This document shows, in pieces, positions 1-24,265 of a stretch of 64,000 bases of DNA. Positions within the stretch are counted from its first letter, which is position 1; the number at the start of each line of letters is the position of its first letter. The translations under genes were made by a program, and so were the position numbers. Source of the DNA: a bacterium (GTDB lineage Bacteria; Actinomycetota; Acidimicrobiia; Spongiisociales; UBA5794); the NCBI GenBank assembly GCA_024228555.1, contig JAAETI010000489.1:8332-72331 (forward strand), read 5' to 3'. Under the pieces are notes generated by a model that saw only the letters and a program-made list of their open reading frames with translations, did not search any database and had not been told where the DNA came from.

Positions 1-1020
1 ATAAACGATCCCGTAGTTCGAGCCGTAGCGGTAGGTGCCCCACTGCTGGTTGGTGAAGGTCGGGAACAAGGCGAGGAAGCCACCGTATCCAACGGCTACC
101 CCAACGACTCCGAGGTAGAACATCGACTGGTTGTCCGCCAAGAAGCTCAGCGACAGAAGAGCCAGAATGGTCACGACAAACACTGACTTCAGAACGTTCA
201 GGGTCCCCAGCTTGTCCGACAGGGATCCCGAGATCAGACGGCTGCTGGCATTGGATATCGCAAGAATGCTGATGATGGTCGCCGCTGCTTCATCTCCAAG
301 ACCGGCTACCTCCAAACCAATGTTCTTGGCTGCTCCGAGAACCAACAGACCCGGGATGACGGCCAGCCAGTACATGACCCAGGTCAAACGGAAAGTACGA
401 GTTCTAACCATCTCATGGGTGGTGAAGTCGTTGGCGCCCTTGGTTGCGGTTGCCTTCGAGTAGCCCGGTGGGTTGCTGGTGAGCTGTGCGCCGAAGATGA
501 TGATGACCCCGGTCACGAGCCCCAATTGGAGGAACGCTGTGGACACGTCGGAACCGTCGATCAGCCACCCGATGACGTCTTTGAAGATGATGCTGCCGCC
601 ACCGAATACGGCTACCGCCAATCCGGTGATCGTGCCCTTCCGGTTCGGGAACCACTTCACCAACGTGGCGATCGGGCAGACATAAACAAACCCGACGCCG
701 GCACCGACGATGACCCCGAAAGTCAAGTACAACATCAGTGGCGTGGTCGCATAGGAAGATAGGATCAACCCACCTCCGTACAACAGGCCACCGATGGTGA
801 TCGTCAGGCGTGGCCCCATGGTGTCGACCAACTTCCCCGAGAAGATGGTGCTGAAAGCGAATACGAACTGGGCGATGGAGTAGGCCAGCAGAACCTCGTC
901 GCTTGACCAGCCCTTTTCGTCCTCGAGAGCGGTGCCGAAGATGCTCCACGCATAGAGACCGGCGATTGTCACCTGGGCCAGTAGGGCGCCAACTAGAACC
1001 ACGTACTTATTCTGCTTCAT
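1..1020 (-). CDS. MFS transporter, OFA (oxalate/formate antiporter-like) family; partial, runs off the left edge
   Basis: Not in the ORF track because there is no stop in the window. Read manually from ATG at 1020: MKQNKYVVLVGALLAQVTIAGLYAWSIFGTALEDEKGWSS...FSGKLVDTMGPR (MFS motif A). Multiple hydrophobic helices, and ...GTYRYGSNYGIVY near position 1, typical of OFA-family C-halves. Confidence 0.85.
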   Translation of the reverse strand, partial: MKQNKYVVLVGALLAQVTIAGLYAWSIFGTALEDEKGWSSDEVLLAYSIAQFVFAFSTIFSGKLVDTMGPRLTITIGGLLYGGGLILSSYATTPLMLYLTFGVIVGAGVGFVYVCPIATLVKWFPNRKGTITGLAVAVFGGGSIIFKDVIGWLIDGSDVSTAFLQLGLVTGVIIIFGAQLTSNPPGYSKATATKGANDFTTHEMVRTRTFRLTWVMYWLAVIPGLLVLGAAKNIGLEVAGLGDEAAATIISILAISNASSRLISGSLSDKLGTLNVLKSVFVVTILALLSLSFLADNQSMFYLGVVGVAVGYGGFLALFPTFTNQQWGTYRYGSNYGIVY

Positions 1021-1088
1021 CCCTCAACCTCACCAGAAGCACGTGTTCGCCGCTCTTCTATTGTCATTGACCGCCGCTACAAAGACAG

Positions 1089-1102
1089 ATTGTGTGCACA
1101 AT
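1089..1102. promoter_or_regulatory. Inverted repeat ATTGTG-N2-CACAAT, candidate (GntR-like) operator upstream of the MFS gene
   Basis: 6-bp inverted repeat in an AT-rich stretch about 70 bp upstream of the MFS start; TTGT-N-ACAA-type cores are typical of GntR-family sites. No cognate regulator is in the window. Confidence 0.35.
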
Positions 1103-1298
1103 TTTTACTTTTTGTCAAAGTTGGATCGAATCAGACTGCGGCTGAGACCAACCAAACACGGACCTACGAGCCTGTGAGCGCTCGCCCAGTGATGCCCGTA
1201 ACTAGTCCTCCTGTACCTCCGTAGTTTGACCCCTTCTGGGTCACCTATTTGCCTTACCTGTCCACTCCTCAAGCCGACTGGATGGAGACCAACCAGAT

Positions 1299-2723
1299 GT
1301 GATGGTGATGGGTAAGTCCCTCAGCTCAGATCGCCTCAGAGGAAGGCGAATCAGCAAGCCTGCGCTCGGCGCCGCGATCAGTGCGGTCATCGCCGTCCTG
1401 ATTGCCGCGCTCCTCCACGCCAACGCTCTGGCCATCGGCTCCTTCCTCGACGACTCCAACGAGTTTGCCCAGTCCGAATCTGCTCTTGTATCAACCCAGC
1501 TCAGCCTGCGCACTCTGAGCCAAGCCGTCCTCCTCGCCGAGGACGTGAACCTGGGTGTTGCCGATCTCGACACCGCAGCGACCGCACGCACCGAAGCCAC
1601 CCGAGCCGTCGGCGATCTGGAAGCAAGACTCACAACGCTGGGTATCGACGTCCAATCATCGACCAGCGCAGTGCAACGGTCCCATCAAGTCGTTGCAGAA
1701 CTCGAAGCGGGCAACGTCGACGAGGCCGGTGAACTCCTCGCCACCGATGCGCTCACATCGTTCGAGCAACTGCGAGACACCGTCGTCGAAAGACGAGATG
1801 CGACACTCGATACGCTCAGTGGAGCCAAGAGCATGACACGGCGGGTCGGAACCATCGCAGGGTTCCTCGTCGCTTTGCTCGCCCCCGCTCTCGCTGTATA
1901 CGCATACTGGCGAATCGCCCGCCGCCAGCTTGATAGCGCTCGCAGCGAGATGGACACCAAGCTTCACGCCGAGCGCCGTGTCATCAAGGCCAAGGACGAG
2001 TTCATCTCGAACATCTCTCACGAGCTGCGCACTCCGCTCACCAGCATCTATGGGTTCTCCGAGATATTGATCGAGCAAGGCATGATCGATCCCGACGAGG
2101 CGCACACTCTCATCTCGGTCATCAACGAAGAATCTGCTGAGCTGAACCGCATGGTCGAGGATCTCCTGACCGTCGCCCGTGACGAGGCAGGCGAGATTGC
2201 GTACAACAACGTAGAGCTCAGCCTCGCCGAAGAGATCGAGACGGTCACCCGTCCGCTGCAGCGAGCGGGAGTATCCGTCAGTGTGGATTGCCCACCGCTC
2301 ATCGTCGATGCCGATCAGCTCCGGCTGCGGCAGATCATGCGCAACCTTCTCTCGAACGCACAACGCTGGGGCGGCGAAACCATCCACCTCTTTGCACAGC
2401 GGGTCGACTCCGCCGCAGTTGTCACGGTCGCCGACAACGGCCCTGGAGTCCCGGCCGACGTCGAACGTCGACTGTTCACCCGCTACATGCACGAAGGCAA
2501 CGAAGCCCTGACCACCGGGACCATCGGACTAGGCCTTGCCGTTGTCAAGATCCTCAGCGAGGGGATGGGTGGCGAAGTCAGCTACGAACACCTCGATGGC
2601 TGGACCCGTTTCGTGGTTCGGCTCCCATTGGCCGGCCCTGAGACGGTGTCCGAAAGCTCACGCCACGACGTACGAGACCGACACATGGCCGTAGCGCCGG
2701 GTGACGGCGCGGCGCTCCCATGA
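1299..2723 (+). CDS. Membrane sensor histidine kinase (2 TM helices, extracytoplasmic helical sensor, HisKA + HATPase_c)
   Basis: H-box ISNISHELRTPLTSIYG, N-box RQIMRNLLSNA, G1 DNGPGV, G2 GTIGLGL; two hydrophobic segments flank a ~140-aa helical region. Confidence 0.95.
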   Translation: MMVMGKSLSSDRLRGRRISKPALGAAISAVIAVLIAALLHANALAIGSFLDDSNEFAQSESALVSTQLSLRTLSQAVLLAEDVNLGVADLDTAATARTEATRAVGDLEARLTTLGIDVQSSTSAVQRSHQVVAELEAGNVDEAGELLATDALTSFEQLRDTVVERRDATLDTLSGAKSMTRRVGTIAGFLVALLAPALAVYAYWRIARRQLDSARSEMDTKLHAERRVIKAKDEFISNISHELRTPLTSIYGFSEILIEQGMIDPDEAHTLISVINEESAELNRMVEDLLTVARDEAGEIAYNNVELSLAEEIETVTRPLQRAGVSVSVDCPPLIVDADQLRLRQIMRNLLSNAQRWGGETIHLFAQRVDSAAVVTVADNGPGVPADVERRLFTRYMHEGNEALTTGTIGLGLAVVKILSEGMGGEVSYEHLDGWTRFVVRLPLAGPETVSESSRHDVRDRHMAVAPGDGAALP

Positions 2724-5700
2724 GATCCAGGTTCGATAGGCTCTTACGCAGTATCTCACGAGCCTCTCCTCGGATCGTCGAACGATGTCACCCCTCTACG
2801 AAGAGGAAGGCCCCGCGGATTGGGTTAGTCCTCCTCCTTGTCGTCGGCACAACGGCGGCGCCGATTCCAGCTGCACAGGCCGCTTCGCCAGCCTTTGTAG
2901 CAGCAACAACCGGCACCTCCGTGGGCGGTGAGGCCTGGATCACGATGGCGCGCCCGGCGGGACTGACGACTGATGATGTTTTGGTCGCCCAAGTCTTGTA
3001 CGAGAACAACCTTCCCAACACCGTCACTCCGCCGTCAGGTTGGATCGAGATTCGCACGGATGAGATGCCCGGCGACCAGATGCTGCAGATCCTGTTCTAC
3101 AAGGTGGCTACGGCAAGCGAACCAGCTGACTACACCTTCAACCTCTCCACAAGCCACCAGGCGGTGGGAGGTCTAGCCGCGTTCCGAGGCGTTGATACGG
3201 GCGATCCAATCAATGCGCACGGCGGACAAACAACGCCTGGTTCGAGCACTATCACCGCGCCGTCAATCGCAACATCGGTGGCAGAGACCACTCTGGTGGG
3301 CTTCTTTGGCATAAAACAGGAGGGCACCATCGACCCTCCGCCCGGCATGACGGAGCGGTGGGATGAGATGCTGACCGGCTCTCCGGCCAGCGACCAACGC
3401 AACGCTGCAGGCGCCACAGAGCAGTTTGGTGGGCCAGGTCCCACCGGGACCCGGGAAGCGTTTCGCACTGCCGGCGACGATAACATCGGCCAGCTGATCG
3501 CACTCGCACCGGCACCGGCTAGCGGCGCGCTGGGCGGGACATACTCCGACGACTTTCAGACGAAGGACTTCACCGGTAGCACTGGCGCGCTGCCTTGGAC
3601 CGGCCCTTGGGTGGAGTCCGGCGAGTCGGACGGGGCTGCCGCCGGCATTATCCGGGTTGTAGATGATCCAAATTGCTACGACGCCAGTTGCTTGGTTCTC
3701 GGAAAAACCATCGCCCCAGATGCTGCCGTCACCCGGGAGGCGAACCTCGCGCCATATGCTTCCGCCACTCTGCGATTCGACTACATAGCTCACAGGCACG
3801 GAAGTGGCGCAGGGACCGCATCCCTCGAGGTATCCGACGGAAGCGGTGGGTGGGCCCCATTGGACACATGGTCCCTAGGCACGGACCTGGGTGACCAAGT
3901 AGGTTTCTACGACCTCTCGCCATTCAGGGCAGCCGACACACGGATTCGGTTCACTGTGACCGGTAGCACCGACGACTCGCACCTCAATGTGGACAATCTT
4001 GTCATTGAGACCGTCGACTGGGCTCAACAGTCAAGCCCAACTTCAAGCGACCTGTTTGCCGTCCAGTTCCCGGTCGATGAATACACCGGGTTTGCCGCCG
4101 GAGACAACGGCGTGATCTTGAGGACCGTCGACGGTGGCGACACCTGGGTCGAACTGCTCACCCCCACTACCGACAGCATCCGTGACCTCAACTTCCCCGA
4201 GGACACGATCACGGGCTTCGCCGTCGGAGCGAACGACACCATCCTCAAGACCACCAACGGAGGCGCAACCTGGGTCGGCTTAACGACCCCGACCAGTGTG
4301 ACCCTCCTTGGGGTTGATCTCATGGACAACCTCTCCGGTTTTGCGGTCGGCAACAACGGCACCATCCTCAAGACCGCTGATGGAGGCGCAACCTGGGTTC
4401 AGAAGCCCAGCGGCAGTGCCGAAGCGTTGCGGGAGGTCGCCTTCCCGATCAATGACCAGACCGGCTATGCGGTGGGGGACAACGGCACCATCCTCAAGAC
4501 CGCTGACGGAGGGGACTCCTGGTCCCCCCAGACGTCCGGTACGAGCCAAACCATCAACGGGATCTACTTTCCTGTTGATACCGACAACGGATACGCAGTC
4601 GCCTCGGGTGGTGAAGTACTTAGCACCACCAACGGAGGGGCACTCTGGCAGATCCACACTCCCACCGGCAACGATCTCCACACAGTCCACTTTCCTCAGG
4701 ATGCTCAGTACGGGCACATCTCGACAGACGGTGGACGCGTCATTGCCACAGATTCCAGCGGATCGACTTGGAGCACCGAGCCCGTCCCCACCAGTGAAGA
4801 TCTGCTCGGTATCTGGTTCAGCAGCCTCACCCGCGGCTGGGTGGTCGGTCGCAACGGAGCCATCTTCGCCACCGGGGTCGCCGGTCCACCCCCTCCCGTC
4901 AATCAGCCGCCAGCCTTTGATCAGGACCTGGGTGATCGCAGCGACGCTGAGGGAACGCCGATTGCGATCAGCTCTGGAGCAACCGATCCAGATGCCAGCG
5001 ACAATCTCATCTACTCTGCTATCGGACTGCCAGATGGCATCGCCATCGATTCGGCTACGGGAACCCTCTCCGGAGTCTTGAGCGCGAACTCCGCCGGCAG
5101 CCATGCGGTCACAGTCAATGTCACCGATGACGGCAGCCCAAGCCTCCAGAACGCAGACGTCTTCACGTGGACTGTGATCCCGGCCGAAGTCACGTATCTC
5201 ATCGCAAACTCCGGTGGCGCAAACGGAGGCGACGACCTGCTCACCGCCGCCGACCGGACAGACGCAGACCCAGCCACCAACGAGACCAACATCGGGACGG
5301 GGACCGGAACAACCAACATCGAAGCTGCCTCGATCCAGCCTGGCACCAACGTTCTGTATGCGGTCGCCAACGATCAGCTCGGCACCATTGATGCCACCAC
5401 CGGCGTCTTCACTCCTAAGGCGTCAAGCGCTGGAGCCGGGAGCGGGTCGGCTGGGCTTGTCGTTTTCGACAACATCGAAAGCCTCACCTTCGACCCCTTC
5501 ACCGGAGATCTGTACGGCACCCACCGCCGTGGTGGTGACTACGAAGGTGACCTCCTGTTCCGCTTCGACCCGGTAACGGGAGCTCACTCGCCAGGAGTAT
5601 TTGGCGGGGACGATTACATACCCATCCAGCCAAGTGGCGTGTTCTACCACTCAGCCGACCTTGCGTTCGATCCGACCGATGGGCAGCTCTATATGGCCCA

Positions 5701-8700
5701 TTGGGCCTTCCTCAATCAGTGGTCGATCGCCACTCTCGATCCGGAGACAGGAGCAAGCGCCACCGTGGGGATTGCTCCCGACGACATTGTGAGCCTGGCC
5801 TTCGACGAGGCTGGCCGTCTCTACACCTCTACCGAAACGGGTGGTGCAGAGACACTGTACGAACTCGACAAAACTGACGGATCCGTGGTCAGCAGCATCG
5901 TCATCGACAACGGCTCCAACTACGAGGCCATGGCAATCGCCTTTCCTGCCAACCCGAATCGGCCGCCGGCATTCGACCAGGATCTGCTTGATCGAACGGA
6001 CCCTGAGAACACGGTGATCTCCTTGTTGGCAGCAGCCACCGACCCCGACGCCGCAGACAGTCTCACATACTCCGCAACCGGCTTGCCGCCAGGACTCGCG
6101 ATCGATCCCGGCAGTGGGCTCATCAGCGGAACGATCAGCTTTGTGGCCGAAGGGAGCTATGCGACGGAAGTCGCCGTCAGCGACGACGGCATCCCCAACC
6201 TCAACGTCACCGACACATTCACATGGACTGTTGGCAACCTCAACCAAGCGCCCACCTTTGACCAGGATCTTCAGGACCGCAGCGATGCCGAAGGCACAGT
6301 CATCTCGCTGTCAGCCTCTGCTGCGGACCACGATGTCGGCGACACCGTCACTTATGGGGCGACGGGACTGCCGACTGGCCTCGGTATCGACACCGCTTCG
6401 GGGCTGATCAGCGGGACGATCGATTACTCGGCGGCTGCAGCAAGCCCGTATGCGGTGACGATCACCGCTACCGACGACGGTGCGCCCAGCGCCAGCGCAA
6501 CTCCGGACACGTTTGCTTGGACCATTCCTGACACGAACCAACCACCGAGCATCGTCAACCCGGGGGCACAGACCACGCCCGAGCTGGCGCCGTTCACGCT
6601 TGGACTCTCCGCCTCAGACCCTGATGGCACCACGCCGTCATTCAACGCCGGCGGCACCCTCCCCACATGGGCAACGCTCATCGACAACGGCGACGGCACG
6701 GCAACTATCTCGGGCACTCCAGGTGCCGGGGCCTCGGGCACTTCGACCGTGACGATCACGGTCTCCGATGGGGGCGTACCGGATCTGACAGACAACGCAG
6801 TCTTCGACCTCACCGTAACCAACACCAATCTGCCGCCAACCATCGTCAACCCCGGCAGCCGGACCATCGGGGAAGGCTCCCCAATCAGCGTTTTGCTGGC
6901 CGGATCTGACCCCGACGGAACCACGGTGAGCTTCTCCGACTCCGGTTCGCTACCGGCGTGGGCAACTCTGACCGACAATGGGGACGACACCGCGATCATC
7001 ACCGGTACCCCCGGTCACAGCGATGCCGCCACCACCGCCGTCACCATCACAGTTACCGATGGCTCACTGACCGACGATGCTGTCTTTGACATCATCGTCA
7101 CCGATGTCAACCGGCCCCCCATCTTCGACGCCGATCTCCCCGATCGCGGAGACGCAGAAGGGGCGGTCATCTCGCTCCCGGCCGCAGCGACTGATCCCGA
7201 CCTCGACAACATCACATACAGCGCTACCGGCCTGCCCCCTGGAGTAGCGATGGACCCGGGCACCGGGCTTGTCGGCGGCACCGTGGCCACGATCGCCGAG
7301 GCCGGTTCGCCCTATGCCGTCACTCTCACCGCAACAGACTCCGGGACACCAAACCTCATCGCAACCGACACCTTCACGTGGGTCGTCACCAATACGAACC
7401 AGCCTCCGGTGCTCGCATCCATCGGTGATCAACTTGGGCCCGAGGAAACCGAGATCACGTTCACCGCGATGGCCACCGATCCAGACGGCGACGGCGTCGA
7501 GTTCTCGTTGGCGGGCGCCCCAGCCGGTGCGGTAATCGACACCGCTACCGGTGTATTCGCCTGGACACCGGCAGAGGTCGATGGCGTTGGCAGCCATACC
7601 GTCACCGTGATCGCCACGGATGACGGATCACCACAATTGACCGACAGCCAGGTGGTCACGATCACCGTGACCGAAGCCAACCGACCACCAACGATCGAAA
7701 CGATCGCCGACCAGACCAGCAACGAGGGCAGCTCAGTGAGCTTGGCGGTTGTCGCCTCGGACCCCGATCTGCCAACCAACCACCTCAGCTTCAGCGCCAG
7801 CGGACTTCCTCCGGGTCTGTCCATCAGTAGCGCCAACGGGCTCATCTCTGGAACCGTCAGCACGGACACGGTCGGCGTGTATGCCGTCACGATCGGCGTC
7901 ACCGACAACGCCGAGCCACCGTATCTGGCGACGACCACATTCGAGTGGACGATCACCGATACCAACAAGGCCCCCCGTCTCGGCCGGGTGAGCGATCAGT
8001 TTGGCGATGAGCAGACAACGATCTCGTTCACTGCGACCGCCACGGACGAAGATGGCGACAATCTGACCTATAGCCTCACCAGTGGCCCTGCGGGGGCCCG
8101 AATCGGTGCAAAGAGTGGTGTGTTCACTTGGACACCTGGCGAGCTCGACGGTCCTGGGACGTTCAGCGCCGTCGTGCTGGTGACCGACGACGGTACGCCC
8201 GCCCTCGGCGACAGCCAGGTCGTCAGCATCACTGTTGGCGAAGTGAATCTGCCACCGACCGTGGACCCGATTGCGGACCAGCAAGGTAACGCCGGGGACG
8301 AGGTTGAACTCGCCATCAGCGCCACTGACCCAGATCTGCCCGCAAACGAGTTCACCCTGTCGGCAACTGGGCTACCCCCTGGCCTGTTCCTGAACCCGGC
8401 CACGGGCGCAATCGGTGGCACGCTGCAAGCAAGCGAGGAAACGATATTCGCTGTGGAGCTGACAGTCACCGACCACGGCATCCCCCAGCTATCCGCCACG
8501 ACTTCGTTCAGGTGGACTGTCAGTCCCGGGGCAGACGAGCCGGACACGGCGGCTCCTCCGACCATCGGCGATATTGGAAACCAGTACACCGACGAGGGCA
8601 GCACCGTGAGCCTCGCGGTGCCTGCCACGAGCAGCGGGACCCTCACATACGCGGCAACCGGCTTGCCGCCGGGGCTCACCATCAATCCCAGCACCGGCTC

Positions 8701-9271
8701 GATCACCGGCTCCGTTGGCACCGATGCCATCGGAACCCACGGGGTGGTGGTGACGGTGACCGACGATGCAACCCCGGCGCAACTGGCTCACTCAGCTTTC
8801 ACCTGGACCGTCACCGACGTAGCTGCAGCTGACGACAAGGATGGCTTAGTTCAGGCGCTCGACGACTTTGCGGCTGAGATTGCTGAGACAACCGGGGTCG
8901 CCGCAGACCAAGAACCGGTCCGGCGCAGCCTCGTCGTTATGGGAAGTGCCGCGGCCGCTACGACAGAATCTCTGCGTTGGCCGTTCGCTCTGTTGGCGGC
9001 ATTGCTCGTTGGCTTTGCGACGGTGGGCCGGGTCGGGCTCTACCCGTTGCTTTGGCGCGGGGACCGCCAGACCGGCACCATCACCCTCTACGACCCTGAG
9101 CTTCTGTTTGGCCTGATTGAGCCCGATGAAGGAGGCGAAGCGGTGCACGTCCACGCCAACGCCTTCCCGCGGCGGATGCGCCCGCTCCTCCAAATTGGGA
9201 TGCGCGTCCGGTACCGTGTGTTAGCGAGCGACAACCGCTCGAGTGCGTGGGGAGCCACAGCCGATGAGTAG
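2720..9271 (+). CDS. Giant (2183 aa) membrane-anchored surface protein: signal peptide, beta-sandwich domains, YCF48/BNR-like propeller, second propeller, 11 Ig/cadherin-like (He_PIG-type) repeats, C-terminal TM helix and cold-shock-like domain
   Basis: Signal peptide ending AQA-A; repeated xILKTxDGGxTW units; 11 N(Q/R/L)PP...D...EG...ATDPD...YSATGLPPGL repeats; TM WPFALLAALLVGFATVGRVGLYPLLW; CSD-like tail TGTITLYDPELLFGLIEPDEGGEAVHVH. The start overlaps the kinase stop (ATGA). Confidence 0.9.
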   Translation: MRSRFDRLLRSISRASPRIVERCHPSTKRKAPRIGLVLLLVVGTTAAPIPAAQAASPAFVAATTGTSVGGEAWITMARPAGLTTDDVLVAQVLYENNLPNTVTPPSGWIEIRTDEMPGDQMLQILFYKVATASEPADYTFNLSTSHQAVGGLAAFRGVDTGDPINAHGGQTTPGSSTITAPSIATSVAETTLVGFFGIKQEGTIDPPPGMTERWDEMLTGSPASDQRNAAGATEQFGGPGPTGTREAFRTAGDDNIGQLIALAPAPASGALGGTYSDDFQTKDFTGSTGALPWTGPWVESGESDGAAAGIIRVVDDPNCYDASCLVLGKTIAPDAAVTREANLAPYASATLRFDYIAHRHGSGAGTASLEVSDGSGGWAPLDTWSLGTDLGDQVGFYDLSPFRAADTRIRFTVTGSTDDSHLNVDNLVIETVDWAQQSSPTSSDLFAVQFPVDEYTGFAAGDNGVILRTVDGGDTWVELLTPTTDSIRDLNFPEDTITGFAVGANDTILKTTNGGATWVGLTTPTSVTLLGVDLMDNLSGFAVGNNGTILKTADGGATWVQKPSGSAEALREVAFPINDQTGYAVGDNGTILKTADGGDSWSPQTSGTSQTINGIYFPVDTDNGYAVASGGEVLSTTNGGALWQIHTPTGNDLHTVHFPQDAQYGHISTDGGRVIATDSSGSTWSTEPVPTSEDLLGIWFSSLTRGWVVGRNGAIFATGVAGPPPPVNQPPAFDQDLGDRSDAEGTPIAISSGATDPDASDNLIYSAIGLPDGIAIDSATGTLSGVLSANSAGSHAVTVNVTDDGSPSLQNADVFTWTVIPAEVTYLIANSGGANGGDDLLTAADRTDADPATNETNIGTGTGTTNIEAASIQPGTNVLYAVANDQLGTIDATTGVFTPKASSAGAGSGSAGLVVFDNIESLTFDPFTGDLYGTHRRGGDYEGDLLFRFDPVTGAHSPGVFGGDDYIPIQPSGVFYHSADLAFDPTDGQLYMAHWAFLNQWSIATLDPETGASATVGIAPDDIVSLAFDEAGRLYTSTETGGAETLYELDKTDGSVVSSIVIDNGSNYEAMAIAFPANPNRPPAFDQDLLDRTDPENTVISLLAAATDPDAADSLTYSATGLPPGLAIDPGSGLISGTISFVAEGSYATEVAVSDDGIPNLNVTDTFTWTVGNLNQAPTFDQDLQDRSDAEGTVISLSASAADHDVGDTVTYGATGLPTGLGIDTASGLISGTIDYSAAAASPYAVTITATDDGAPSASATPDTFAWTIPDTNQPPSIVNPGAQTTPELAPFTLGLSASDPDGTTPSFNAGGTLPTWATLIDNGDGTATISGTPGAGASGTSTVTITVSDGGVPDLTDNAVFDLTVTNTNLPPTIVNPGSRTIGEGSPISVLLAGSDPDGTTVSFSDSGSLPAWATLTDNGDDTAIITGTPGHSDAATTAVTITVTDGSLTDDAVFDIIVTDVNRPPIFDADLPDRGDAEGAVISLPAAATDPDLDNITYSATGLPPGVAMDPGTGLVGGTVATIAEAGSPYAVTLTATDSGTPNLIATDTFTWVVTNTNQPPVLASIGDQLGPEETEITFTAMATDPDGDGVEFSLAGAPAGAVIDTATGVFAWTPAEVDGVGSHTVTVIATDDGSPQLTDSQVVTITVTEANRPPTIETIADQTSNEGSSVSLAVVASDPDLPTNHLSFSASGLPPGLSISSANGLISGTVSTDTVGVYAVTIGVTDNAEPPYLATTTFEWTITDTNKAPRLGRVSDQFGDEQTTISFTATATDEDGDNLTYSLTSGPAGARIGAKSGVFTWTPGELDGPGTFSAVVLVTDDGTPALGDSQVVSITVGEVNLPPTVDPIADQQGNAGDEVELAISATDPDLPANEFTLSATGLPPGLFLNPATGAIGGTLQASEETIFAVELTVTDHGIPQLSATTSFRWTVSPGADEPDTAAPPTIGDIGNQYTDEGSTVSLAVPATSSGTLTYAATGLPPGLTINPSTGSITGSVGTDAIGTHGVVVTVTDDATPAQLAHSAFTWTVTDVAAADDKDGLVQALDDFAAEIAETTGVAADQEPVRRSLVVMGSAAAATTESLRWPFALLAALLVGFATVGRVGLYPLLWRGDRQTGTITLYDPELLFGLIEPDEGGEAVHVHANAFPRRMRPLLQIGMRVRYRVLASDNRSSAWGATADE

Positions 9272-9656
9272 ACAACGAATCTTGATCATCGAAGATGATG
9301 CGGCAACGCGCCATCTATGCGGCCAGATCCTCAAGCCTCGCGGAGCGGAACTCGAATTCGCCGAAGACGGCGCTGAGGCATTAGAGATGCTGAAGCAATC
9401 TCGTCCCGATCTGATCCTGCTCGACATTGCACTACCGAAAGTCGACGGTTGGCAGATACTCGAGTCGGTTCGCGGCAACGCGGATACGGCCGACGTGCCG
9501 ATCATCGTGATCACGGCACACGGTCAGGGTTCAGTTGCGGAACGGGCGCTGCATGGTGGAGCCGACCGGTTCTTTGAGAAACCGTTCTGGCCTCCGGAAC
9601 TATCGGCGGCGGTAGACACACTGCTGGGCACGGTGCCCGCAGATTGTCAGACCTAG
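9264..9656 (+). CDS. Single-domain CheY-like response regulator
   Basis: MSRQRILIIEDD...DLILLDIALPKVDG...IIVITA...FEKPF; no output domain. The ATG at 9264 overlaps the end of the giant gene and has GGAG upstream. Confidence 0.93.
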   Translation: MSRQRILIIEDDAATRHLCGQILKPRGAELEFAEDGAEALEMLKQSRPDLILLDIALPKVDGWQILESVRGNADTADVPIIVITAHGQGSVAERALHGGADRFFEKPFWPPELSAAVDTLLGTVPADCQT

Positions 9657-10084
9657 GCCGGGTCGCCACCCTGGCGAGCCGCAAACCCGGCCACGAGAAA
9701 CTCGCAGGCATACCAAGTCAGCATGGCTGCCGCGATCGGCGCAATCAAAGCCGCAGCCGGGATGACGATTTCATCGCCAAGCTCGAAGACGGGAAGACTG
9801 GTACTGGCCACCGCCGCAGCTAGCCAAATCGCACCAACGATGCCCAGGATCCACGGATAGGAGGTGTCCTGAGCCCAACCCACCTCGGTGGGACGTCGAA
9901 ACATCGTGAGTCGCAGGACGCCGACGGTGGCAACAAGCCCCCAGAACCAGTCCATGATCTTGGCAACGTCGACCACCACCGGATCGCTGCCGAATTCGAG
10001 CCTGGGTGAGCCGAGGCTCATCACCAGGACCGCCACCCAGATCACCGCGATGGTGAGCCAGATCCAAATACTGTTCGTTTTCAT
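9653..10084 (-). CDS. Small membrane protein, ~4 TM helices, function unknown
   Basis: ATG at 10084 after AGAGGGG (the ORF-track start at 10144 is likely too long); four hydrophobic stretches. Confidence 0.75.
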   Translation of the reverse strand: MKTNSIWIWLTIAVIWVAVLVMSLGSPRLEFGSDPVVVDVAKIMDWFWGLVATVGVLRLTMFRRPTEVGWAQDTSYPWILGIVGAIWLAAAVASTSLPVFELGDEIVIPAAALIAPIAAAMLTWYACEFLVAGFAARQGGDPA

Positions 10085-10226
10085 TGCCCCTCTACCAGCT
10101 GGATCGTCACTCGCACTCCCGTGGCACCCCACGAATGTGCACACAATAGAGTCTTGCTCGATTTGCGCCTAGTTGTCCGCCACCGCGGGGCCTAATCCCC
10201 GCGTATTGTGAGAACTGGAGGGAACC

Positions 10227-10964
10227 ATGGCTCACGAAGTTGCTGAACGGATCTATCGGCTCGGCGCTGATCTAGTCAACTGGTATGTCGTCGAAGATGG
10301 CGGCCGTATCACCGTCGTCGACGCCGGCAATCCCAACCAGTATTCCCAGCTGCCCGCCGCACTAGCGAAACTCGGCCGCACTATGGATGACGTGGATGCC
10401 ATCGTGCTCACCCACGCCCACGGAGACCACCTCGGCTCGGCGGCCCACATCAGAGATGTGAGCGGCGCCGACGTCCACGTTCATTCCAAAGATGTCAAGC
10501 TCGCCAGAGGTGAGAGCCACCGCGAGTATGAGCGTCACTACATCCGGGACCTGGGCCACAGCTTTGCGTGGAAGTCGCTCATGTTCTTTCTGCGAGGTGG
10601 CGCCACCAAAGCACCCCCGGTCCATGATTTGGTTGAATTTGCCCACGGAGAGGTCCTCGACATACCGGGGAGCCCGCGTGTCATCCACACCCCCGGCCAT
10701 ACCGAGGGAAGTGCCTGTTTGGAGTTCACGGAACGCGATGCAGTCATGAGCGGCGACGCTCTAGTAACCCTGAGCATCGTTACCGGTGAGCGCACCCCCC
10801 GGATCATGCCGGGGTCGTTCAATGCCAACAGTCCGGCAGCCCTGGAATCACTCAATGAACTCAGAAGCGTCAGCGCTGAGATCCTCCTCCCCGGCCACGG
10901 CGAACCGTGGCACGGGAGTATCGATGCTGCCGTCGTCCTCGCCCAGAAGACTGGCGCTAACTGA
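10227..10964 (+). CDS. MBL-fold metallo-hydrolase
   Basis: THAHGDHLG (HxHxDH), HTPGHT, SGDAL, LLPGHG motifs; GGAGGG RBS. Confidence 0.93.
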   Translation: MAHEVAERIYRLGADLVNWYVVEDGGRITVVDAGNPNQYSQLPAALAKLGRTMDDVDAIVLTHAHGDHLGSAAHIRDVSGADVHVHSKDVKLARGESHREYERHYIRDLGHSFAWKSLMFFLRGGATKAPPVHDLVEFAHGEVLDIPGSPRVIHTPGHTEGSACLEFTERDAVMSGDALVTLSIVTGERTPRIMPGSFNANSPAALESLNELRSVSAEILLPGHGEPWHGSIDAAVVLAQKTGAN

Positions 10965-11121
10965 CGGGCTCGACGTTGATATCCAGCGGCAGCGGCCAAT
11001 CTCCGACCAGCCACTGCCCAGCCTCCACGAATTCTGGTTCTGGCTCGACCGGTGCCAGGTCGGGGGTTTCGGTCCTGTCCAATTCGACAATGATCACTCT
11101 TTGTTGATTGCCAATGTCCAT
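10957..11121 (-). CDS. 54-aa acidic, Pro-rich small protein (MDIGNQQRVIIVE...)
   Basis: ATG at 11121 preceded by GAGGAG; overlaps the 3' end of the upstream gene by 28 nt. Confidence 0.6.
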   Translation of the reverse strand: MDIGNQQRVIIVELDRTETPDLAPVEPEPEFVEAGQWLVGDWPLPLDINVEPVS

Positions 11122-11942
11122 GGTGTGGCCCTCCTCTTGTGTGCCATGACGAACGTCTCCATCTCTGTGAGACGTTGTCCGTGTGTTTCTATCTTCCGTT
11201 CGCACCGAATCACCGCCGGGTCGGCAAAGACACCGTCAATCGTGCCTGCATCGCTGGTCAGCACCACGTGCTTTCCAAGCGAAGCAGCCAGCGCTATCAC
11301 CGTTGCCGACGCGGCGCGGTAACCCTCGTCATGCTCGACCACTTTGCCGGTCAGAGCGACCAAGCCGAGCGCCACGTCACCGATTGCCGTCACATCGAAC
11401 TCGGTATAGAGGGGGTCGACCAACTTTGCTGCGTAGACCCCGCAACCGAGGCGCCCGCATCTCCCATCGGTATGCGGGATCTCCTCGCCGCCACCACGTG
11501 AAAGACAGGTGGCAACAAGAGTGCGTTCCGGCCAGGGCATCTTGACTCCGTGCAGAGCCTCCTCACCGACACCCCACAGGCGAAAGCCAAGGACCGGCGT
11601 CGGAGACCATCCCTCGGCATGGTCCTGCTTCGCCCTTACGATCACATCCTCGAGGCAGAACTCAACCCAGCGCTCGATCCTCTGCACCTCCGAGGACATG
11701 GAGTTGATGTCAACCTGAATCCGAGCCACCTCTTCTTCGAGCTTGGCCAGTCGCCGTTGCCGACTTGCCATGGCGGCGTTCGCCTTCGTGACGTCGATCA
11801 TTCCGCTCAATTCGCCGTAGCGTTCCTGGTACAGACGAACGGTCCGACGCAGTTCTGCGAGTCTCTGGGTGGGCTCAATGTTGAGAACTGGCTCCATCAC
11901 GATCTCCGAGCGAACGGCCTTCGACCATATGTCACCGAACAT
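11094..11942 (-). CDS. Hypothetical protein: N-terminal coiled coil plus a Cys-containing domain (GFRLW...ATC...CGRLGCGVYA...GKVVEHDEGYRA)
   Basis: 282-aa ORF; heptad-like N-terminal third; the C-terminal motif pattern resembles an uncharacterised domain family recalled from actinobacteria and phages. Confidence 0.7.
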   Translation of the reverse strand: MFGDIWSKAVRSEIVMEPVLNIEPTQRLAELRRTVRLYQERYGELSGMIDVTKANAAMASRQRRLAKLEEEVARIQVDINSMSSEVQRIERWVEFCLEDVIVRAKQDHAEGWSPTPVLGFRLWGVGEEALHGVKMPWPERTLVATCLSRGGGEEIPHTDGRCGRLGCGVYAAKLVDPLYTEFDVTAIGDVALGLVALTGKVVEHDEGYRAASATVIALAASLGKHVVLTSDAGTIDGVFADPAVIRCERKIETHGQRLTEMETFVMAHKRRATPWTLAINKE

Positions 11943-12038
11943 CTGTTCGCAACCGAGTTACGGCCCCGTTTTTCGCGACCTAGGCATAGATTTCGCGATC
12001 CTCGCGAGGCGCGGTCGATCCCAGGTAGCGTCACCACA

Positions 12039-12608
12039 ATGAGTGACGGGACACCAAAGATTGCGGCGCACACTCCCGGTGAGTTCCGAGATTGGCTCGA
12101 AGCCAATCATGCGAGCGAGTCATCCGCCTGGCTCATCTTGTGGAAGAAGTCGAGCGGACGCCAGTTGATGACGATCGGTGATGCAATCGATCAAGCGCTC
12201 TGTTTTGGCTGGGTGGACTCCAAGAGCCGATCTCTCGACGACAACCGCTACCTGGTCTACTTCTCTGTCCGCAAGCGTGGCAGCGGCTGGTCCAAGATCA
12301 ACAAAAACAAGATCGCCAAGCTCGAGGCAGCCGCGGCCATGGCTCCCGCAGGAACAGCCGCAGTGGCTCGCGCCAAGGAAGACGGGTCATGGACGATGCT
12401 GGATGGCCCGGAAGCCGGGATCGTACCTCCTGACCTCAAAGCTGCCCTTGAAGCGGCGGGCGCCCGCCACGGTTTCGACAACCTGACCCCCGGTGCTCGC
12501 AAGGCGATCCTCACCTGGCTGGTGACTGCGAAACGCGATGCGACCCGTCAGAGTCGCATCGAAAGAGCTGTCGCCGCAGCCCGAGACGGCAAGTCACCGC
12601 TCGCCTAA
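12039..12608 (+). CDS. YdeI/OmpD-associated family protein
   Basis: FRDWLEANH...WLILWKK...ALCFGWVDS...RKRGSGWSKINK...VPPDLKAAL...AKRDATRQSRIE. True start is the ATG at 12039; the ORF-track extension to 11550 is the antisense shadow of the neighbouring gene. Confidence 0.9.
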   Translation: MSDGTPKIAAHTPGEFRDWLEANHASESSAWLILWKKSSGRQLMTIGDAIDQALCFGWVDSKSRSLDDNRYLVYFSVRKRGSGWSKINKNKIAKLEAAAAMAPAGTAAVARAKEDGSWTMLDGPEAGIVPPDLKAALEAAGARHGFDNLTPGARKAILTWLVTAKRDATRQSRIERAVAAARDGKSPLA

Positions 12609-13441
12609 ACGCCAACGGACTTCTGAATCTCAGCAACCACGAGCGGCGCAGAATCACCAAACAAGAAAGTGATGTGGTTGCCAGGGATCTCGACCAGGGT
12701 CGAGTTCTCGATCCACCCCAACGTGCGTTCGGCCACCTCTCGGGTCACGATCGGACCTACGTCCGCTGATCCCAGCTGATCTGGGGCGCGCAGCAGCAGT
12801 GTTGGCTGCCCGATTCTGCGCACAATCTCCGGCCATTGGATATCGAGCGTGGCCAGCGCCGCCGCCCGGATATGCTCCGGGTCCGAGATCGCTTGCACCG
12901 TCCCATCCGGGTTCGTTCGCAGATCCCTGCGGTAGTACTCCTCGATAGCCGGGTCCCACCATCCGTTGAAGTACGGAGCTGCCTTCACCAACGCCAGATA
13001 CTCGTCCCAGGATGGAAAGACCATGCCGAGACGATCAAGCGATGGCTTGATCTGATCCATGATTCCGATGTGTACCTCGGCAGGAGCATCCATGGCAACA
13101 CATGCGGACACCCGGTCCGGGTGATTCGCCGCCAAGTAGTACGAGACGAGGCCACCAAACGAGTGGCCACCCACGATCGCCCTATCGATGTTCAGAGCAT
13201 CCATGAACCCCAACACATCGGCGGCATGGGTGGCAACGTCATACAGCCCGTCCGGCGCATCGCTTTGTCCGCGACCGCGTAGATCGACTGCGAGCACCCG
13301 AAGATGATCTGCAAGACCGGCCTGCAGCAGACCACCAAAGGAATGGGCATTTGCCGTCAACCCGGGAAGGAGAATGAGGGTCGGGCCACCTCCATCATGA
13401 TCTAGATAGTGGAGACGGACCTGACCGGTTTCAGCAAACAT
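12605..13441 (-). CDS. Alpha/beta-fold hydrolase
   Basis: LLPGLT, DLRGRGQS, nucleophile motif GHSFGG, C-terminal GNH. Confidence 0.9.
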   Translation of the reverse strand: MFAETGQVRLHYLDHDGGGPTLILLPGLTANAHSFGGLLQAGLADHLRVLAVDLRGRGQSDAPDGLYDVATHAADVLGFMDALNIDRAIVGGHSFGGLVSYYLAANHPDRVSACVAMDAPAEVHIGIMDQIKPSLDRLGMVFPSWDEYLALVKAAPYFNGWWDPAIEEYYRRDLRTNPDGTVQAISDPEHIRAAALATLDIQWPEIVRRIGQPTLLLRAPDQLGSADVGPIVTREVAERTLGWIENSTLVEIPGNHITFLFGDSAPLVVAEIQKSVGV

Positions 13442-14961
13442 CAGCCCTCCATGTATTCATCACGAATGATCCTTCGCAAAGTCTTGCCCGCAACGCTCAG
13501 GGGGAACTCATTGAGCACGATCACCTCACGCAGCTTCTGGAACCTGGCGTCGACACGATCATTGACCCACTCAAGCACGGCAACAGGATCGGCCCCGAAC
13601 TCCGGCTCGAGTCGCACCGCCGCCACCGGGCTCTCCCCCCACCGGTCGTCCTCGACTCCAAAAACAGCAACGTCGGTGACCGCCGGGTGTTGGATGACGA
13701 TCTCCTCGATATCGCGCGGGTAGACGTTCACTCCACCAGAGATGATGAGGTCCTTCTTCCTATCAACCAGAAACAGAAAGCCATCGTCGTCGACATACCC
13801 AAGATCACCGCTGTACAGCCACCCGTCCTTGATCGCCTCGGCGGTGAGGTCGGGCCGCTTGTAGTAACCGGGCATGGTGATCGGTCCCCTGCCGACGATC
13901 TCACCGACCTCACCTGCGGGAAGGTCGCTTCCGTCATCGTCAACGATCCGCATCTCGTAGAGAGGCGGAGGAACGCCAACGGATCCGGGTTTGGCGACGA
14001 AATCGTCACGATCCAGGATCGTGACAAACCCCTCGGTGAGACCGTAGAGCTCGTAGAACCGGTTGGGGAGCCGCCGCGCCAGCTCCTCCTTGTGCTCCAA
14101 ATGAAGTGGAGCCCCCACCGAGCACACCATCTCCAATGCTGGCAGATGTTCCTCGTCGAAGTCGTCCTCGGCGAGCAGGGCGATGATCTGCGACGGCACT
14201 GTCATGATGTGAGTGACCTTTTCCGCCGCCATCAGGTCGATCATCCCCCGGGCATCAAACGAAGGCATCAGAACGTAGGTAGCCCCTAGATAGAACGCCG
14301 GCATTAGGGTCAAGAATGCCCCGTTGAACACCAACGAGCCGCTGTGCAGAATCACGCTCTCCGGCTTGATTCGGTACGACGCTGTAAACCCGGTGCAGTA
14401 GGCCATCCGGATGTAATGGTTGTGGACGATCCCCTTTGGCTGTCCCGTGGTGCCAGAGCTGTAGATGATGTTGTACGGATCCTCATCGACAACATCTACC
14501 CAGGGGGGCTCCTCCCCCGAGGCTGCTCCGGTGAGTTCGTGATAGTTGCGATACCCGGGTACGGCATCGGCGTCGGTGATCACGTATCGATCGGTTGCCA
14601 CGCTGATCCGCTCCCGCACGGCATCGAAGTGCGCAACCATGCTCTGCATCGTGATCACCGCTGCTGAGTCAGCATCGTTGACAAGTGTCACCAAACCATC
14701 GCCACGCAACAGCGGGCTGAGCGGCACCACGACCAGGCCGGTCTTGGCCACCGCCTGGTAGATCTCAAGCAGCTCGAGAGAGTTGTCCAACACAACCGCC
14801 ACCTTGTCACCACGTTGCAGCCCCAGAGTCAACAGGCTATTCGCCAGCCGATTGATCCTGATATTGAACTCGGCGTGGGTGTAGCGCCGTCCCTCAAACA
14901 CCACCGCGTTGTGGTTTGGCCGGTATTGCGCATGACGGGTCGCAAGCGTGTTTATGGGCAT
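13441..14961 (-). CDS. Acyl-CoA synthetase (class I adenylate-forming enzyme)
   Basis: YSSGTTGQPKG, YGLTEG, SGDLGYVD, DRKKDLIISGGVNVYP, GKTLRR. Confidence 0.95.
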   Translation of the reverse strand: MPINTLATRHAQYRPNHNAVVFEGRRYTHAEFNIRINRLANSLLTLGLQRGDKVAVVLDNSLELLEIYQAVAKTGLVVVPLSPLLRGDGLVTLVNDADSAAVITMQSMVAHFDAVRERISVATDRYVITDADAVPGYRNYHELTGAASGEEPPWVDVVDEDPYNIIYSSGTTGQPKGIVHNHYIRMAYCTGFTASYRIKPESVILHSGSLVFNGAFLTLMPAFYLGATYVLMPSFDARGMIDLMAAEKVTHIMTVPSQIIALLAEDDFDEEHLPALEMVCSVGAPLHLEHKEELARRLPNRFYELYGLTEGFVTILDRDDFVAKPGSVGVPPPLYEMRIVDDDGSDLPAGEVGEIVGRGPITMPGYYKRPDLTAEAIKDGWLYSGDLGYVDDDGFLFLVDRKKDLIISGGVNVYPRDIEEIVIQHPAVTDVAVFGVEDDRWGESPVAAVRLEPEFGADPVAVLEWVNDRVDARFQKLREVIVLNEFPLSVAGKTLRRIIRDEYMEG

Positions 14962-14990
14962 CGTTGACTCCCCTTCCGTAACATGACCAT

Positions 14991-15770
14991 ATGCTCATTG
15001 GTCCCGTCGCTATTGCCACTGTCTTCACACAGAGTCAGTTCGACGAATACGCAAGACTCTCTGGTGACGACAACCCCATCCATGTTGACCCGCACTTTGC
15101 CTCGCAGACACGTTTCGGATGCACGGTTGCTCACGGCATGTTCTTGTACTCCGCCCTCCAAGCGGCCGTGGCCGCCCAAGCCGCCCAGCCGATCCGGCTG
15201 TCCGCTCAAGAGTTCATGTTCACGGCCCCCACCTACACCGGCGATCCACTGATCCTTTCGCTGCATCCCGCTGGCGATTCCATCGTCGAAGAGATCACCG
15301 ATTCCACCGGCACTGTCACCCTCAAGGGCAAGACCCGTCTCGGGGAACCCGATGGACGTGAACCGGGACCCGCTGAGCTTGTGGTGTCTCCCGGATACAA
15401 GAGCTTTGAAGTCGGTATGACCGCAAGCCGCACGAGAAGCTTCACGAAGGACGATGTGTCCGGGTTTCTGCGGCTGGTTGGTGACCGCAACCCGCTGTTC
15501 GCAGGCGACACCCCCGAATTGCCGCCGGCTCTGCTCGCCGGGATGGACTCGTGCGTGCTCGGGGTGGACCTTCCGGGGCGCGGTACCAGCTGGCTCAAGC
15601 AGAGCTTCGAATATCACCGGCCGGTTGTCGTACCGGTTGAGGTCACGTGCCGGGTCACGATCACCCGGATCCGGCCAGAGAAAGGCCTGATCAACTTGGC
15701 AACGACATGCTCGGTAGCCGACGGAACGATCTCGTCCGGCAAGGCCCTCGTTCTGGCGATCGATGTCTAG
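14991..15770 (+). CDS. Double MaoC/hotdog-domain dehydratase (PhaJ-like R-specific enoyl-CoA hydratase family)
   Basis: LSGDDNPIHVD...AHGMF hydratase motif in domain 1; degenerate second domain LVGDRNPLF. Confidence 0.85.
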   Translation: MLIGPVAIATVFTQSQFDEYARLSGDDNPIHVDPHFASQTRFGCTVAHGMFLYSALQAAVAAQAAQPIRLSAQEFMFTAPTYTGDPLILSLHPAGDSIVEEITDSTGTVTLKGKTRLGEPDGREPGPAELVVSPGYKSFEVGMTASRTRSFTKDDVSGFLRLVGDRNPLFAGDTPELPPALLAGMDSCVLGVDLPGRGTSWLKQSFEYHRPVVVPVEVTCRVTITRIRPEKGLINLATTCSVADGTISSGKALVLAIDV

Positions 15771-15778
15771 CGGCGGAG

Positions 15779-16549
15779 TCACCGCTCTCGCCCCAAGAAT
15801 GCCGCCATCCCCTGCAGAGCTTCGGGGGTGATGATCTGCTCCACAAAAGCCTCTCGCTCCGCCTCCAAACCGGCGGCGACCTCCTTGTGGCCCCGCCACA
15901 ACAACCGTTTGGTGCTGGCAACCGATGCCGGGGCCATCGCGGCGATGTCCTGCGCCGCCGCTTGAGCCGCGGCAACAGTCGATCCCCCATCCACCACCTC
16001 CGACACGATCCCCCAAGAAGCAGCTTGGTCGGCGCGAATGGTTCGGTTGCGCAGCAGGATGTCGCTCGTTCGCTTTGTGCCGATTAGGTCGGGGAGCATT
16101 GCCGTCCACCCACCATCGGGAGAGAAGCCTACGACGCAATACCAAGGCGTGATCGTTGCATCACGAGCCATCAGCACCACATCGGACCCGAGGATGAGAC
16201 CGATCGATCCGCCGGTGACCACACCGTGGACCGCAGCCACAATCGGTTGCGGAAGCTGCAACATCGTCAGGATCACTCTATTGAGCAGCCCGACCGTTTC
16301 GGAGGCATAGTCGGCGAGACCGTCACCTGCGCTGAAGAACCCCCTCACGTCCCCGCCCGTGGAAAAGGAACGCCCCTCCGCACCAAGCACCACGGCCCGG
16401 ATCGAGGGGTCGGCAGCCACGTCCTCGAGGGCAACCCACAAGTCGGTAAGCAACTCGGGGACCAGACTGTTATGACGATCGGGTCGGTTCAATGTCACAG
16501 TGGCCACAGCACCCATGCGGTGCGTCTTGACGAGGTTCGCCCTACTCAC
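15779..16549 (-). CDS. Enoyl-CoA hydratase/isomerase (crotonase) family
   Basis: TVTLNRPDRHNSL, FSTGGD, AAVHGVVTGGSIG, PDGG. GTG start at 16549 after GGAGAA; the ORF-track start at 16837 runs through the phaC remnant. Confidence 0.92.
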   Translation of the reverse strand: MSRANLVKTHRMGAVATVTLNRPDRHNSLVPELLTDLWVALEDVAADPSIRAVVLGAEGRSFSTGGDVRGFFSAGDGLADYASETVGLLNRVILTMLQLPQPIVAAVHGVVTGGSIGLILGSDVVLMARDATITPWYCVVGFSPDGGWTAMLPDLIGTKRTSDILLRNRTIRADQAASWGIVSEVVDGGSTVAAAQAAAQDIAAMAPASVASTKRLLWRGHKEVAAGLEAEREAFVEQIITPEALQGMAAFLGRER

Positions 16550-18403: not shown

Positions 18404-18417
18404 CCCGGTTTCCCTCC

Positions 18418-22782: not shown

Positions 22783-22807
22783 CCAGTCCTCCTCACCCTT
22801 TGTTGGA

Positions 22808-22835
22808 GGTGGGGTGGGCCGAAGCCCACCCCACC
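22808..22835 (-). terminator. Intercistronic 12-bp hairpin with a C(UUCG)G tetraloop after the substrate-binding protein gene
   Basis: Minus strand GGTGGGGTGGGC-TTCG-GCCCACCCCACC; perfect stem, no U-tract. Confidence 0.7.
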
Positions 22836-22851
22836 AGTTATCACTAGTCGA

Positions 22852-24237: not shown

Positions 24238-24265
24238 TCAGTTTCCTCCTCTTTCCCTTTTCTGG

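Follow-up and report, generated by a model that had tools for sequence, protein, structure and literature searches.

The output at the end of a two-component pathway is nearly always a DNA-binding, enzymatic or motor-binding one, and only for individual cases is it known how stand-alone receivers reach their targets. Kinases operating with an accessory protein are represented by the MtrAB-LpqB, LiaFSR and VraTSR systems, and to our knowledge no such accessory protein is a giant immunoglobulin (Ig)-repeat protein or contains a cytoplasmic domain of a nucleic-acid-binding type. Documented kinases with accessory membrane proteins also include QseE with QseG (PMC12691602) and HmrA with HmrC (PMC11481889; see also bioRxiv 10.1101/2025.01.23.634444). 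The locus analyzed here lies in a 64,000-nt stretch of DNA (hereafter, the window; contig JAAETI010000489.1) from a metagenome-assembled genome (MAG) of an uncultured marine actinobacterium (Acidimicrobiia). Three genes follow one another on its plus strand with overlapping ends, encoding a sensor histidine kinase (1299-2723, 474 aa), a large surface protein (2720-9271, 2183 aa) and a receiver-only response regulator (9264-9656, 130 aa counted from the ATG). The surface protein terminates, behind a single predicted transmembrane helix, in a cold-shock domain (CSD). Comparative analysis of related loci led us to propose, tentatively and at somewhat less than even confidence, that these products form a dedicated membrane signalling module of the "three-component" kind in Acidimicrobiia, in which the CSD would serve as a cytoplasmic effector or docking element.

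This arrangement shares features with several types of described proteins and fully coincides with none of them. As in the three-component systems, a kinase gene is fixed to the gene of a membrane or surface protein from which the kinase probably receives signals, whereas the regulator found here lacks an output domain. The RsgI-type anti-sigma factors of cellulolytic clostridia are single-pass proteins with an extracellular carbohydrate-binding module (CBM) and a small cytoplasmic domain that relays the signal. The likeness thus extends to single-pass topology, polymer sensing outside and a small domain inside, but in RsgI the inside domain is N-terminal and binds a sigma factor, the ectodomain is small and no kinase is involved. 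ToxR, CadC and the CSD-DUF1294 proteins likewise hold a nucleic-acid-binding-type domain at the inner face of the membrane by means of transmembrane segments. However, the domains of ToxR and CadC are N-terminal DNA-binding winged helices that operate without a kinase, and in CSD-DUF1294 an N-terminal CSD precedes a polytopic membrane domain with no ectodomain. Giant adhesins such as Ebh of S. aureus share the signal peptide, the long Ig-like array and the C-terminal transmembrane anchor, but their C terminus is a short charged tail or a sortase signal, whereas here the end is a folded CSD and the gene is locked to a kinase gene. Finally, the cold-shock proteins (Csps) of the CspA/CspB type (PF00313) have the same five-stranded OB barrel; the actinobacterial CspB signature YDP..GFG recurs in the tail, the His of the RNP2 motif is kept and the RNP2 Phe is kept family-wide. 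In contrast to the Csps, which are free cytoplasmic proteins of ~70 aa, the CSD is here the C-terminal end of an exported protein of 940 to >2300 aa, tethered a few residues below the transmembrane helix, with W8, F17 and F30 replaced and an Arg-rich beta3-beta4 loop added.

A preliminary description of the locus, made from the window sequence alone, took its architecture to be undescribed. This stands in the sense that our full-text literature search found no description of a transmembrane-anchored C-terminal CSD or of a CSD partner of a two-component system (in the Caulobacter Hmr study cold shock appears only as a stimulus; PMC11481889). On the other hand, the presence of a CSD had already been noticed by automatic annotation, which names a near-identical protein "MAG: cold shock domain-containing protein" (MCP4305689.1). 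The parts are all of known kinds (CSD, HisKA kinase, CheY-like receiver, He_PIG adhesin, kinases with accessory proteins) and their combination is not. Novelty lies in the family, in its topology and in the fixed manner in which it is wired to kinase and receiver, not in the CSD match itself.

The membrane-anchored cold-shock tail and its family

A Kyte-Doolittle scan over all 2183 aa of the surface protein revealed only two hydrophobic segments, aa 31-55 and aa 2084-2111 (nt ~8969-9052). The first falls within a signal peptide (aa 1-55, 2720-2884, plus strand) with a basic n-region (KRKAPR), a hydrophobic core at aa 33-52 and a predicted cleavage between AQA and A, and the second matches the one transmembrane helix that the preliminary description had placed at ~8978-9055. 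Hydropathy, an AlphaFold2 (AF2) model and the family alignment together delimit the single transmembrane segment to aa 2088-2112 (8981-9055, plus strand). It is preceded by a conserved extracytoplasmic juxtamembrane helix (aa 2069-2087, 8924-8980, plus strand; RSLVVM...), the start of a 115-aa family module, and followed by the CSD (aa 2116-2181, 9065-9262, plus strand), for which Pfam, AF2 and Foldseek indicate five beta strands. Given the cleavable signal peptide and the single helix, the tail should be cytoplasmic rather than extracellular. Sortase-type anchoring could be ruled out, since the last 200 aa contain no LPXTG-like motif (the sole LPxTG string, LPWTG, lies outside that stretch) and the transmembrane helix leads into a folded 70-aa domain. 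Public gene calls start inside the gene and thereby lose the signal peptide; this holds for a 2108-aa call (P0005, from M76) as well as for the 2116-aa call on the near-identical protein MCP4305689.1. A start at the ATG of 2720, overlapping the stop codon of the kinase gene, restores the signal peptide.

When searched alone (73 aa), the tail matches the Pfam CSD family PF00313 with 30.4 bits (E 3.7e-7; gathering score 27), and PF00313 is also listed for relatives in precomputed Pfam matches; within the whole large protein (match at aa 2118-2176) the score is 23.9 bits, which is below the gathering score. The best solved relatives by sequence are CspB of M. tuberculosis (PDB 9xw3, E 1.2e-4), a plant CSD and Csps of Neisseria and E. 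coli. From 22 aligned family tails, AF2 predicts for the last 115 aa a single long helix at residues 2-35 (juxtamembrane plus transmembrane), a low-confidence linker at 38-44 and strands at 48-57, 62-67, 74-77, 94-100 and 107-113, with a predicted local confidence (pLDDT) of ~88-91 over the barrel. In a Foldseek search of the PDB this model retrieved E. coli CspA (1mjc) first, with a TM-score of 0.88 (normalised to CspA) and a root-mean-square deviation of 2.0 Å over 68 columns, and its top-ranked matches are cold-shock domains. As modelled, the tail is a five-stranded antiparallel barrel of the CSD/OB type, the fold that the preliminary description had assigned to it by pattern; the tail sequence which that description quoted, with its altered RNP1 (LLFGLI for the canonical KGFGFI) and RNP2 (VHVHA for VFVHF), proved correct as well.

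Expressed in the numbering of Bs-CspB, the window tail has W8 changed to L, F9 to Y, F17 to L, F27 to H and F30 to A, while F15 and H29 are kept. Across the 22 aligned tails, the retained positions are F9 (Y/F in 22/22), F15 (F/Y in 18/22), F27 (21/22), H29 (22/22) and R56 (21/22), and the replaced ones are W8 (variable), F17 (L in 19/22) and F30 (R in 10/22, otherwise another residue). In Csps, both H29 and F27 contact nucleic acid.

The suggestion that comparable tails might be found on other large surface proteins was borne out by an exhaustive phmmer search with the last 88 aa against 1.84 billion representatives. Of its 171 matches, ~27 align from inside the transmembrane segment down to their own C terminus. 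On the basis of this alignment, the 115-aa block (juxtamembrane helix, transmembrane helix and CSD) appears to define a small family of ~27 clusters at 50% identity, hosted by Acidimicrobiia and represented among marine-sediment proteins, with very variable ectodomains made of He_PIG/cadherin repeats and with lengths that include 940, 1016, 1054, 1664, 1847, 2083, 2183, 2298, 2330 and >2383 aa. The same in-frame fusion of transmembrane segment and CSD is found in at least 10 independent loci. The block alignment is essentially indel-free; its consensus reads R(S/T)LV(V/L)M..A.....(M/L).(F/L)P before the transmembrane segment and GR(V/I)G..P...RG.R..G(T/V)V..YD...G(F/Y)GL(I/V)..D..G..VF(V/F)H... 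after it. Invariant positions are R1, P20, G35, G51, G63, V74, H77 and G92; P41 and R45 are nearly so.

No other part of the large protein is nearly as well conserved as this block. Compared with the nearest relative (locus L014), the window is 94.8% identical in the tail, 87% in the receiver and 81% in the kinase, as against 52-62% in an ectodomain that is moreover rearranged. In the distant members, conservation is equal over the juxtamembrane helix (0.43), the transmembrane segment (0.39) and the CSD (0.43), a distribution that is unusual for a mere anchor. In addition, the block occurs as mini-genes composed only of a transmembrane helix and a family CSD with no ectodomain, namely P0045 (110 aa, L004 10001-10333) and P0035 (98 aa, L012 269-565), each with in-frame stop codons upstream.

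Linkage of kinase, surface protein and receiver

The kinase gene product is recognized by the Pfam models HisKA (66.4 bits, aa 231-298) and HATPase_c (73.5 bits, aa 339-445), and its transmembrane helices (aa 17-51 and 182-207) enclose a ~145-aa extracytoplasmic helical sensor. The H-box SHELRTPL is invariant across the kinase alignment, and so is the sensor motif QAVLLAED..LGVAD in the family; by these features the protein classifies as a classical sensor kinase of the HisKA family. The public call of this gene starts at the ATG at 1308 (471 aa). The receiver, with 99 bits to Response_reg over aa 6-117 of its 130 residues, matches no other domain and hence has no DNA-binding or output domain, as the preliminary description had noted. 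All key residues are present (D11/D12, the phospho-acceptor D54, T84 and K106, aligned with CheY, Spo0F and PhoB), which classifies it as a single-domain, CheY-like response regulator. Lacking an output domain, it must act through a protein partner.

Both gene junctions were read directly. The kinase stop and the large-gene start share ATGA (2720-2723, plus strand) within CCCATGAGA, and the receiver start overlaps the large-gene stop by 8 nt in ATGAGTAG (9264-9271, plus strand); in GCCGATGAGTAGACA the receiver ATG occupies 9264-9266 and the large-gene TAG 9269-9271. The unit is flanked by a divergent minus-strand gene starting near 1020 and by a convergent minus-strand open reading frame (ORF) at 9653-10144, and therefore consists of exactly three genes, in agreement with the single unit proposed initially. 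A 39.8-kb contig from another, independent public assembly spans 1000-10200 with a single mismatch, so that the fusion is not an assembly artefact.

To what extent this linkage is conserved was assessed in marine-sediment and related metagenomes, in which the independent lineages are modest in number. A search with a four-sequence tail alignment identified two species-level Acidimicrobiia MAGs with the same trio and the same flanking genes. Further away, a kinase gene directly precedes the surface-protein gene in four loci with tails 33-42% identical (L003, L007, L008 and L009); in a fifth, L010, the upstream kinase is split into several reading frames and fragmentary ORFs precede the called surface-protein gene. 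The upstream kinases are 47-68% identical to the window kinase over their full length, sensor domain included. In L010 the split extends over the kinase and the N-terminal part of the surface protein (1344-4962), either as a pseudogene or through frameshift errors, on a 350-kb and possibly long-read contig.

When metagenome contigs were searched with the kinase alignment, and the 64 loci obtained were scanned with our own hidden Markov models of tail, kinase and receiver, the gene next to the kinase turned out to be a signal-peptide homologue of the large protein in 21/21 non-redundant kinase-family loci with downstream sequence. The tail was present at all 10 non-redundant surface-protein gene ends that could be read, and at none of 44 control loci with other kinases. 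The lone exception is a truncated kinase-family copy (L030 7503-8513; L031 9962-10972) which breaks off at ~residue 326 and has no surface-protein gene after it; this locus is probably decayed. In each of 16 related loci checked, the surface-protein gene starts before the kinase gene has ended (ATGA/GTGA in 12 and an 11-nt overlap in 4), so that the position of the ATG at 2720 is kept in all of them. Overall, the order of kinase followed by surface protein is conserved far beyond close relatives; together with the overlapping starts, by which the surface-protein gene is translationally coupled to one kinase family throughout, it provides strong comparative evidence for a fixed and stoichiometrically co-expressed pair. 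This pair makes up the invariable core of the module.

The receiver behaves differently. It overlaps the tail gene in the ATGnnnTAG manner in the window, L001, L002, L014 and L017, and follows it after 13 nt in L013; receiver-only genes are located upstream of the kinase in L023 (one) and L026 (two), and 4 kb away in L022. The mini-genes have receiver-only neighbours too, convergent in L004-6 and joined by a 4-nt ATGA overlap in L012, with no kinase within 10 kb. The linked receivers share the motifs LD(I/L)ALP..DGW(E/Q)(V/I)L and (I/V)TAHGQ. From this distribution the receiver appears to be a recurrent, not a universal partner, linked to the transmembrane-CSD block rather than to the ectodomain. 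The preliminary view of a receptor wired to a two-component relay is well supported on comparative grounds, with the qualification that the receiver is adjacent in some lineages only.

Ectodomain and genomic surroundings

Pfam detects in the large protein eleven He_PIG repeats (E 1.9e-116), PSII_BNR/Sortilin, Big_9 and Cadherin_4/5, in addition to the CSD. Following the signal peptide is an extra N-terminal domain of ~210 aa (aa 56-265, 2885-3514, plus strand) with no Pfam or PDB sequence match, which is absent in the orthologues of L001, L014 and L017. The subsequent distal "tip" domain (aa 266-437, 3515-4030, plus strand) is common to nearly all family members. It was modelled from a six-row alignment as a CBM-like/LamG-like beta-sandwich jelly roll with two conserved Cys (pLDDT 78.6; predicted TM-score, pTM, 0.78), whose structural matches (TM-scores 0.5-0.7) comprise CBM61, a porphyran-binding CBM, CBM16, CBM4, gingipain adhesin domains and ephrin-receptor ligand-binding domains; one relative has a Laminin_G_3 match. 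Further modules on the plus strand are a BNR/Ycf48-like beta-propeller (Pfam; aa ~440-730, 4037-4909), one He_PIG domain at aa ~736-820, a module without Pfam or PDB sequence match that is also found in L001, L003, L023 and L026 (aa 825-1100, 5192-6019), and a Pfam-defined stalk of He_PIG, Big_9 and cadherin-like Ig domains (aa ~1100-2040, 6017-8839). Taken together, these features classify the large protein as a predicted stalked surface protein of a ligand-binding type with a single-helix membrane anchor. The modules are shuffled even among close relatives: L014 and L019 have no match to the propeller segment of the window, and the surface proteins of L023 and L026 begin directly with the aa 825-1100 module.

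The window DNA is chromosomal, with 58-64% G+C. Neither an Rfam scan of positions 1-12000 (no match) nor a promoter and terminator scan (nothing above chance) added a feature to the locus, and no curated NCBIfam family was at cut-off for the kinase, the large protein or the receiver. The convergent ORF (9653-10144, minus strand), whose stop codon overlaps that of the receiver by 4 nt, encodes a small protein of 143-163 aa with ~4 transmembrane helices and no Pfam match; L001 (10724-11215) and L002 (6499-7014) show this arrangement too. In L009 (2463-3973) and L010 (1-1029), genes for an extracytoplasmic function (ECF) sigma factor and a Glucodextran_B-domain protein lie upstream of the pair on the opposite strand; they are absent from the window. 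Farther along the window, positions 12605-28522 are rich in acyl-CoA and fatty-acid metabolism genes (three AMP-binding ligases, a MaoC dehydratase, an enoyl-CoA hydratase, a KAS III-like gene and a TetR regulator), with an ABC transporter of the branched-chain amino-acid type and no mobile-element genes. A mobile-element or phage origin of the module was ruled out, as the flanking genes are those of ordinary chromosomal metabolism. Two adjoining DivIVA-domain genes, one of them unusually long (899 aa), are located at 34552-38121 (minus strand), and around them the AT skew is strongly negative (-0.23 at 36-38 kb).

A candidate three-component module and its alternatives

The steps by which the proposed module might work (kinase pairing, phosphotransfer and the contact between receiver and CSD) are drawn from gene linkage and conservation only. 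The juxtamembrane/transmembrane block would pair with the kinase within the membrane, making the surface protein an extracellular co-sensor of glycan, particle or contact binding. The kinase would phosphorylate the stand-alone receiver, which could then bind the membrane-tethered CSD, its effector or docking site and the only conserved cytoplasmic partner in sight, and this binding would change what the CSD holds, most probably single-stranded RNA or DNA and less probably a protein. Surface contact as the signal is a guess, prompted by the modelled distal domain that looks like a carbohydrate-binding jelly roll. A more specific version, which we consider doubtful, is that the tethered CSD is itself a so far unrecognised output of two-component signalling, with the stalked receptor and its kinase setting how far the receiver is phosphorylated and the receiver gating its binding of RNA or single-stranded DNA, or with the CSD being freed by intramembrane cleavage.

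Several observations speak against this proposal. The adjacency of kinase and surface protein could merely mean co-regulation. No receiver gene is found near the module in L003, L008, L009, L010 and L011, so that this partner may be dispensable; the mutual identity of linked receivers (34-54%) is only modestly above their 25-37% identity to the outgroup sequences CheY, Spo0F and PhoB. The canonical aromatic platform for nucleic acids is kept only by about half family-wide, and the window tail, alone among the 22 in having F27 changed to H, has the most degenerate binding face of the family. Tails of the window clade are near-neutral as well (pI ~6, vs 10-12 in most family tails). Thus, judged from sequence, nucleic-acid binding by the tail is plausible, and least assured for the window protein itself. 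In the mini-protein P0045 the N-terminal flank of the helix is more basic than the C-terminal one, which leaves its membrane orientation ambiguous. Finally, three RNA runs of the same samples yielded no contigs of the locus.

One competing explanation is that the large protein is simply a membrane-anchored adhesin or S-layer-like protein, with kinase and receiver only controlling its expression or responding to envelope stress, and with the CSD as a cytoplasmic "stopper", an anchor or a general RNA chaperone that takes no part in signal transfer. Two-component genes often adjoin the genes that they control, and the variable, adhesin-like ectodomains, the degenerate aromatic face and the many family members with no receiver nearby would all fit. 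However, a receiver without a DNA-binding domain cannot itself regulate transcription, the start-codon overlap with the kinase in every locus checked argues for a fixed stoichiometry, and a mere stopper would need neither a tail so much better conserved than its ectodomain nor the conserved H29 and F27. With transmembrane-CSD mini-genes that still stand beside receivers although they have no ectodomain also to be accounted for, we regard this explanation as rather unlikely. A CSD acting as a protein-interaction module on the DHp or catalytic domain of the kinase and switching it between kinase and phosphatase activity, that is, an accessory sensor active on both membrane sides with no nucleic acid involved, would agree with the strict kinase linkage next to a facultative receiver and with the loss of half of the aromatic platform. 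It also has precedents among kinase-controlling membrane proteins, e.g. the QseG-QseE and HmrC-HmrA pairs cited above. The mini-genes beside receivers and far from any kinase, the conserved H29 and F27 and the very basic character of most tails count against it, and we assign it a low probability.

Regulated intramembrane proteolysis is a further alternative. A ligand or shear would trigger cleavage in the juxtamembrane region and then in the transmembrane segment, in a Notch-like manner, and the freed CSD would act like a soluble Csp, as an RNA chaperone or antiterminator. The juxtamembrane helix is conserved, helix breakers in or after the transmembrane segment (P20, G35, P41) are invariant or nearly so, AF2 predicts a low-confidence coil at residues 38-44, and classical CSDs are known to act as small soluble proteins. 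Yet no locus has a linked protease gene, and the strict linkage to the kinase as well as the linkage to the receiver would be left unexplained, so that we deem this route improbable. As to an artefact, whether the CSD resemblance arose by chance, a separate csp gene was joined on through a frameshift or an assembly error, or the tail is in fact extracellular, the sub-threshold CSD score of the whole protein and the ambiguous charges flanking the helix of one mini-protein might be cited in its favor. Against these stand the recurrence of the in-frame fusion in independent loci, the concordant independent assembly, the support for the CSD fold from AF2 and Foldseek, and a signal peptide and single transmembrane helix that put the C terminus inside the cell; any such artefact is therefore very improbable.

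The comparative data point to a specific candidate partner of the receiver, namely the CSD in which a giant surface protein ends beneath the membrane. RNA binding by the tail, if it occurs, would mean a direct line from a binding event at the cell surface to RNA control; were the CSD indeed the output of the pathway, this would amount to direct post-transcriptional control from a cell-surface event in monoderm bacteria. If, on the other hand, the tail binds the kinase or the receiver, the OB/CSD fold would have been put to a new use, that of a signalling adaptor. For annotation, the analysis provides a rule by which this kinase family, a tail of the type RSLVVM...transmembrane segment...CSD and a TAHGQ-type receiver belong together, and, for the biology of the abundant uncultured marine Acidimicrobiia, a handle on how they sense surfaces or polymers.

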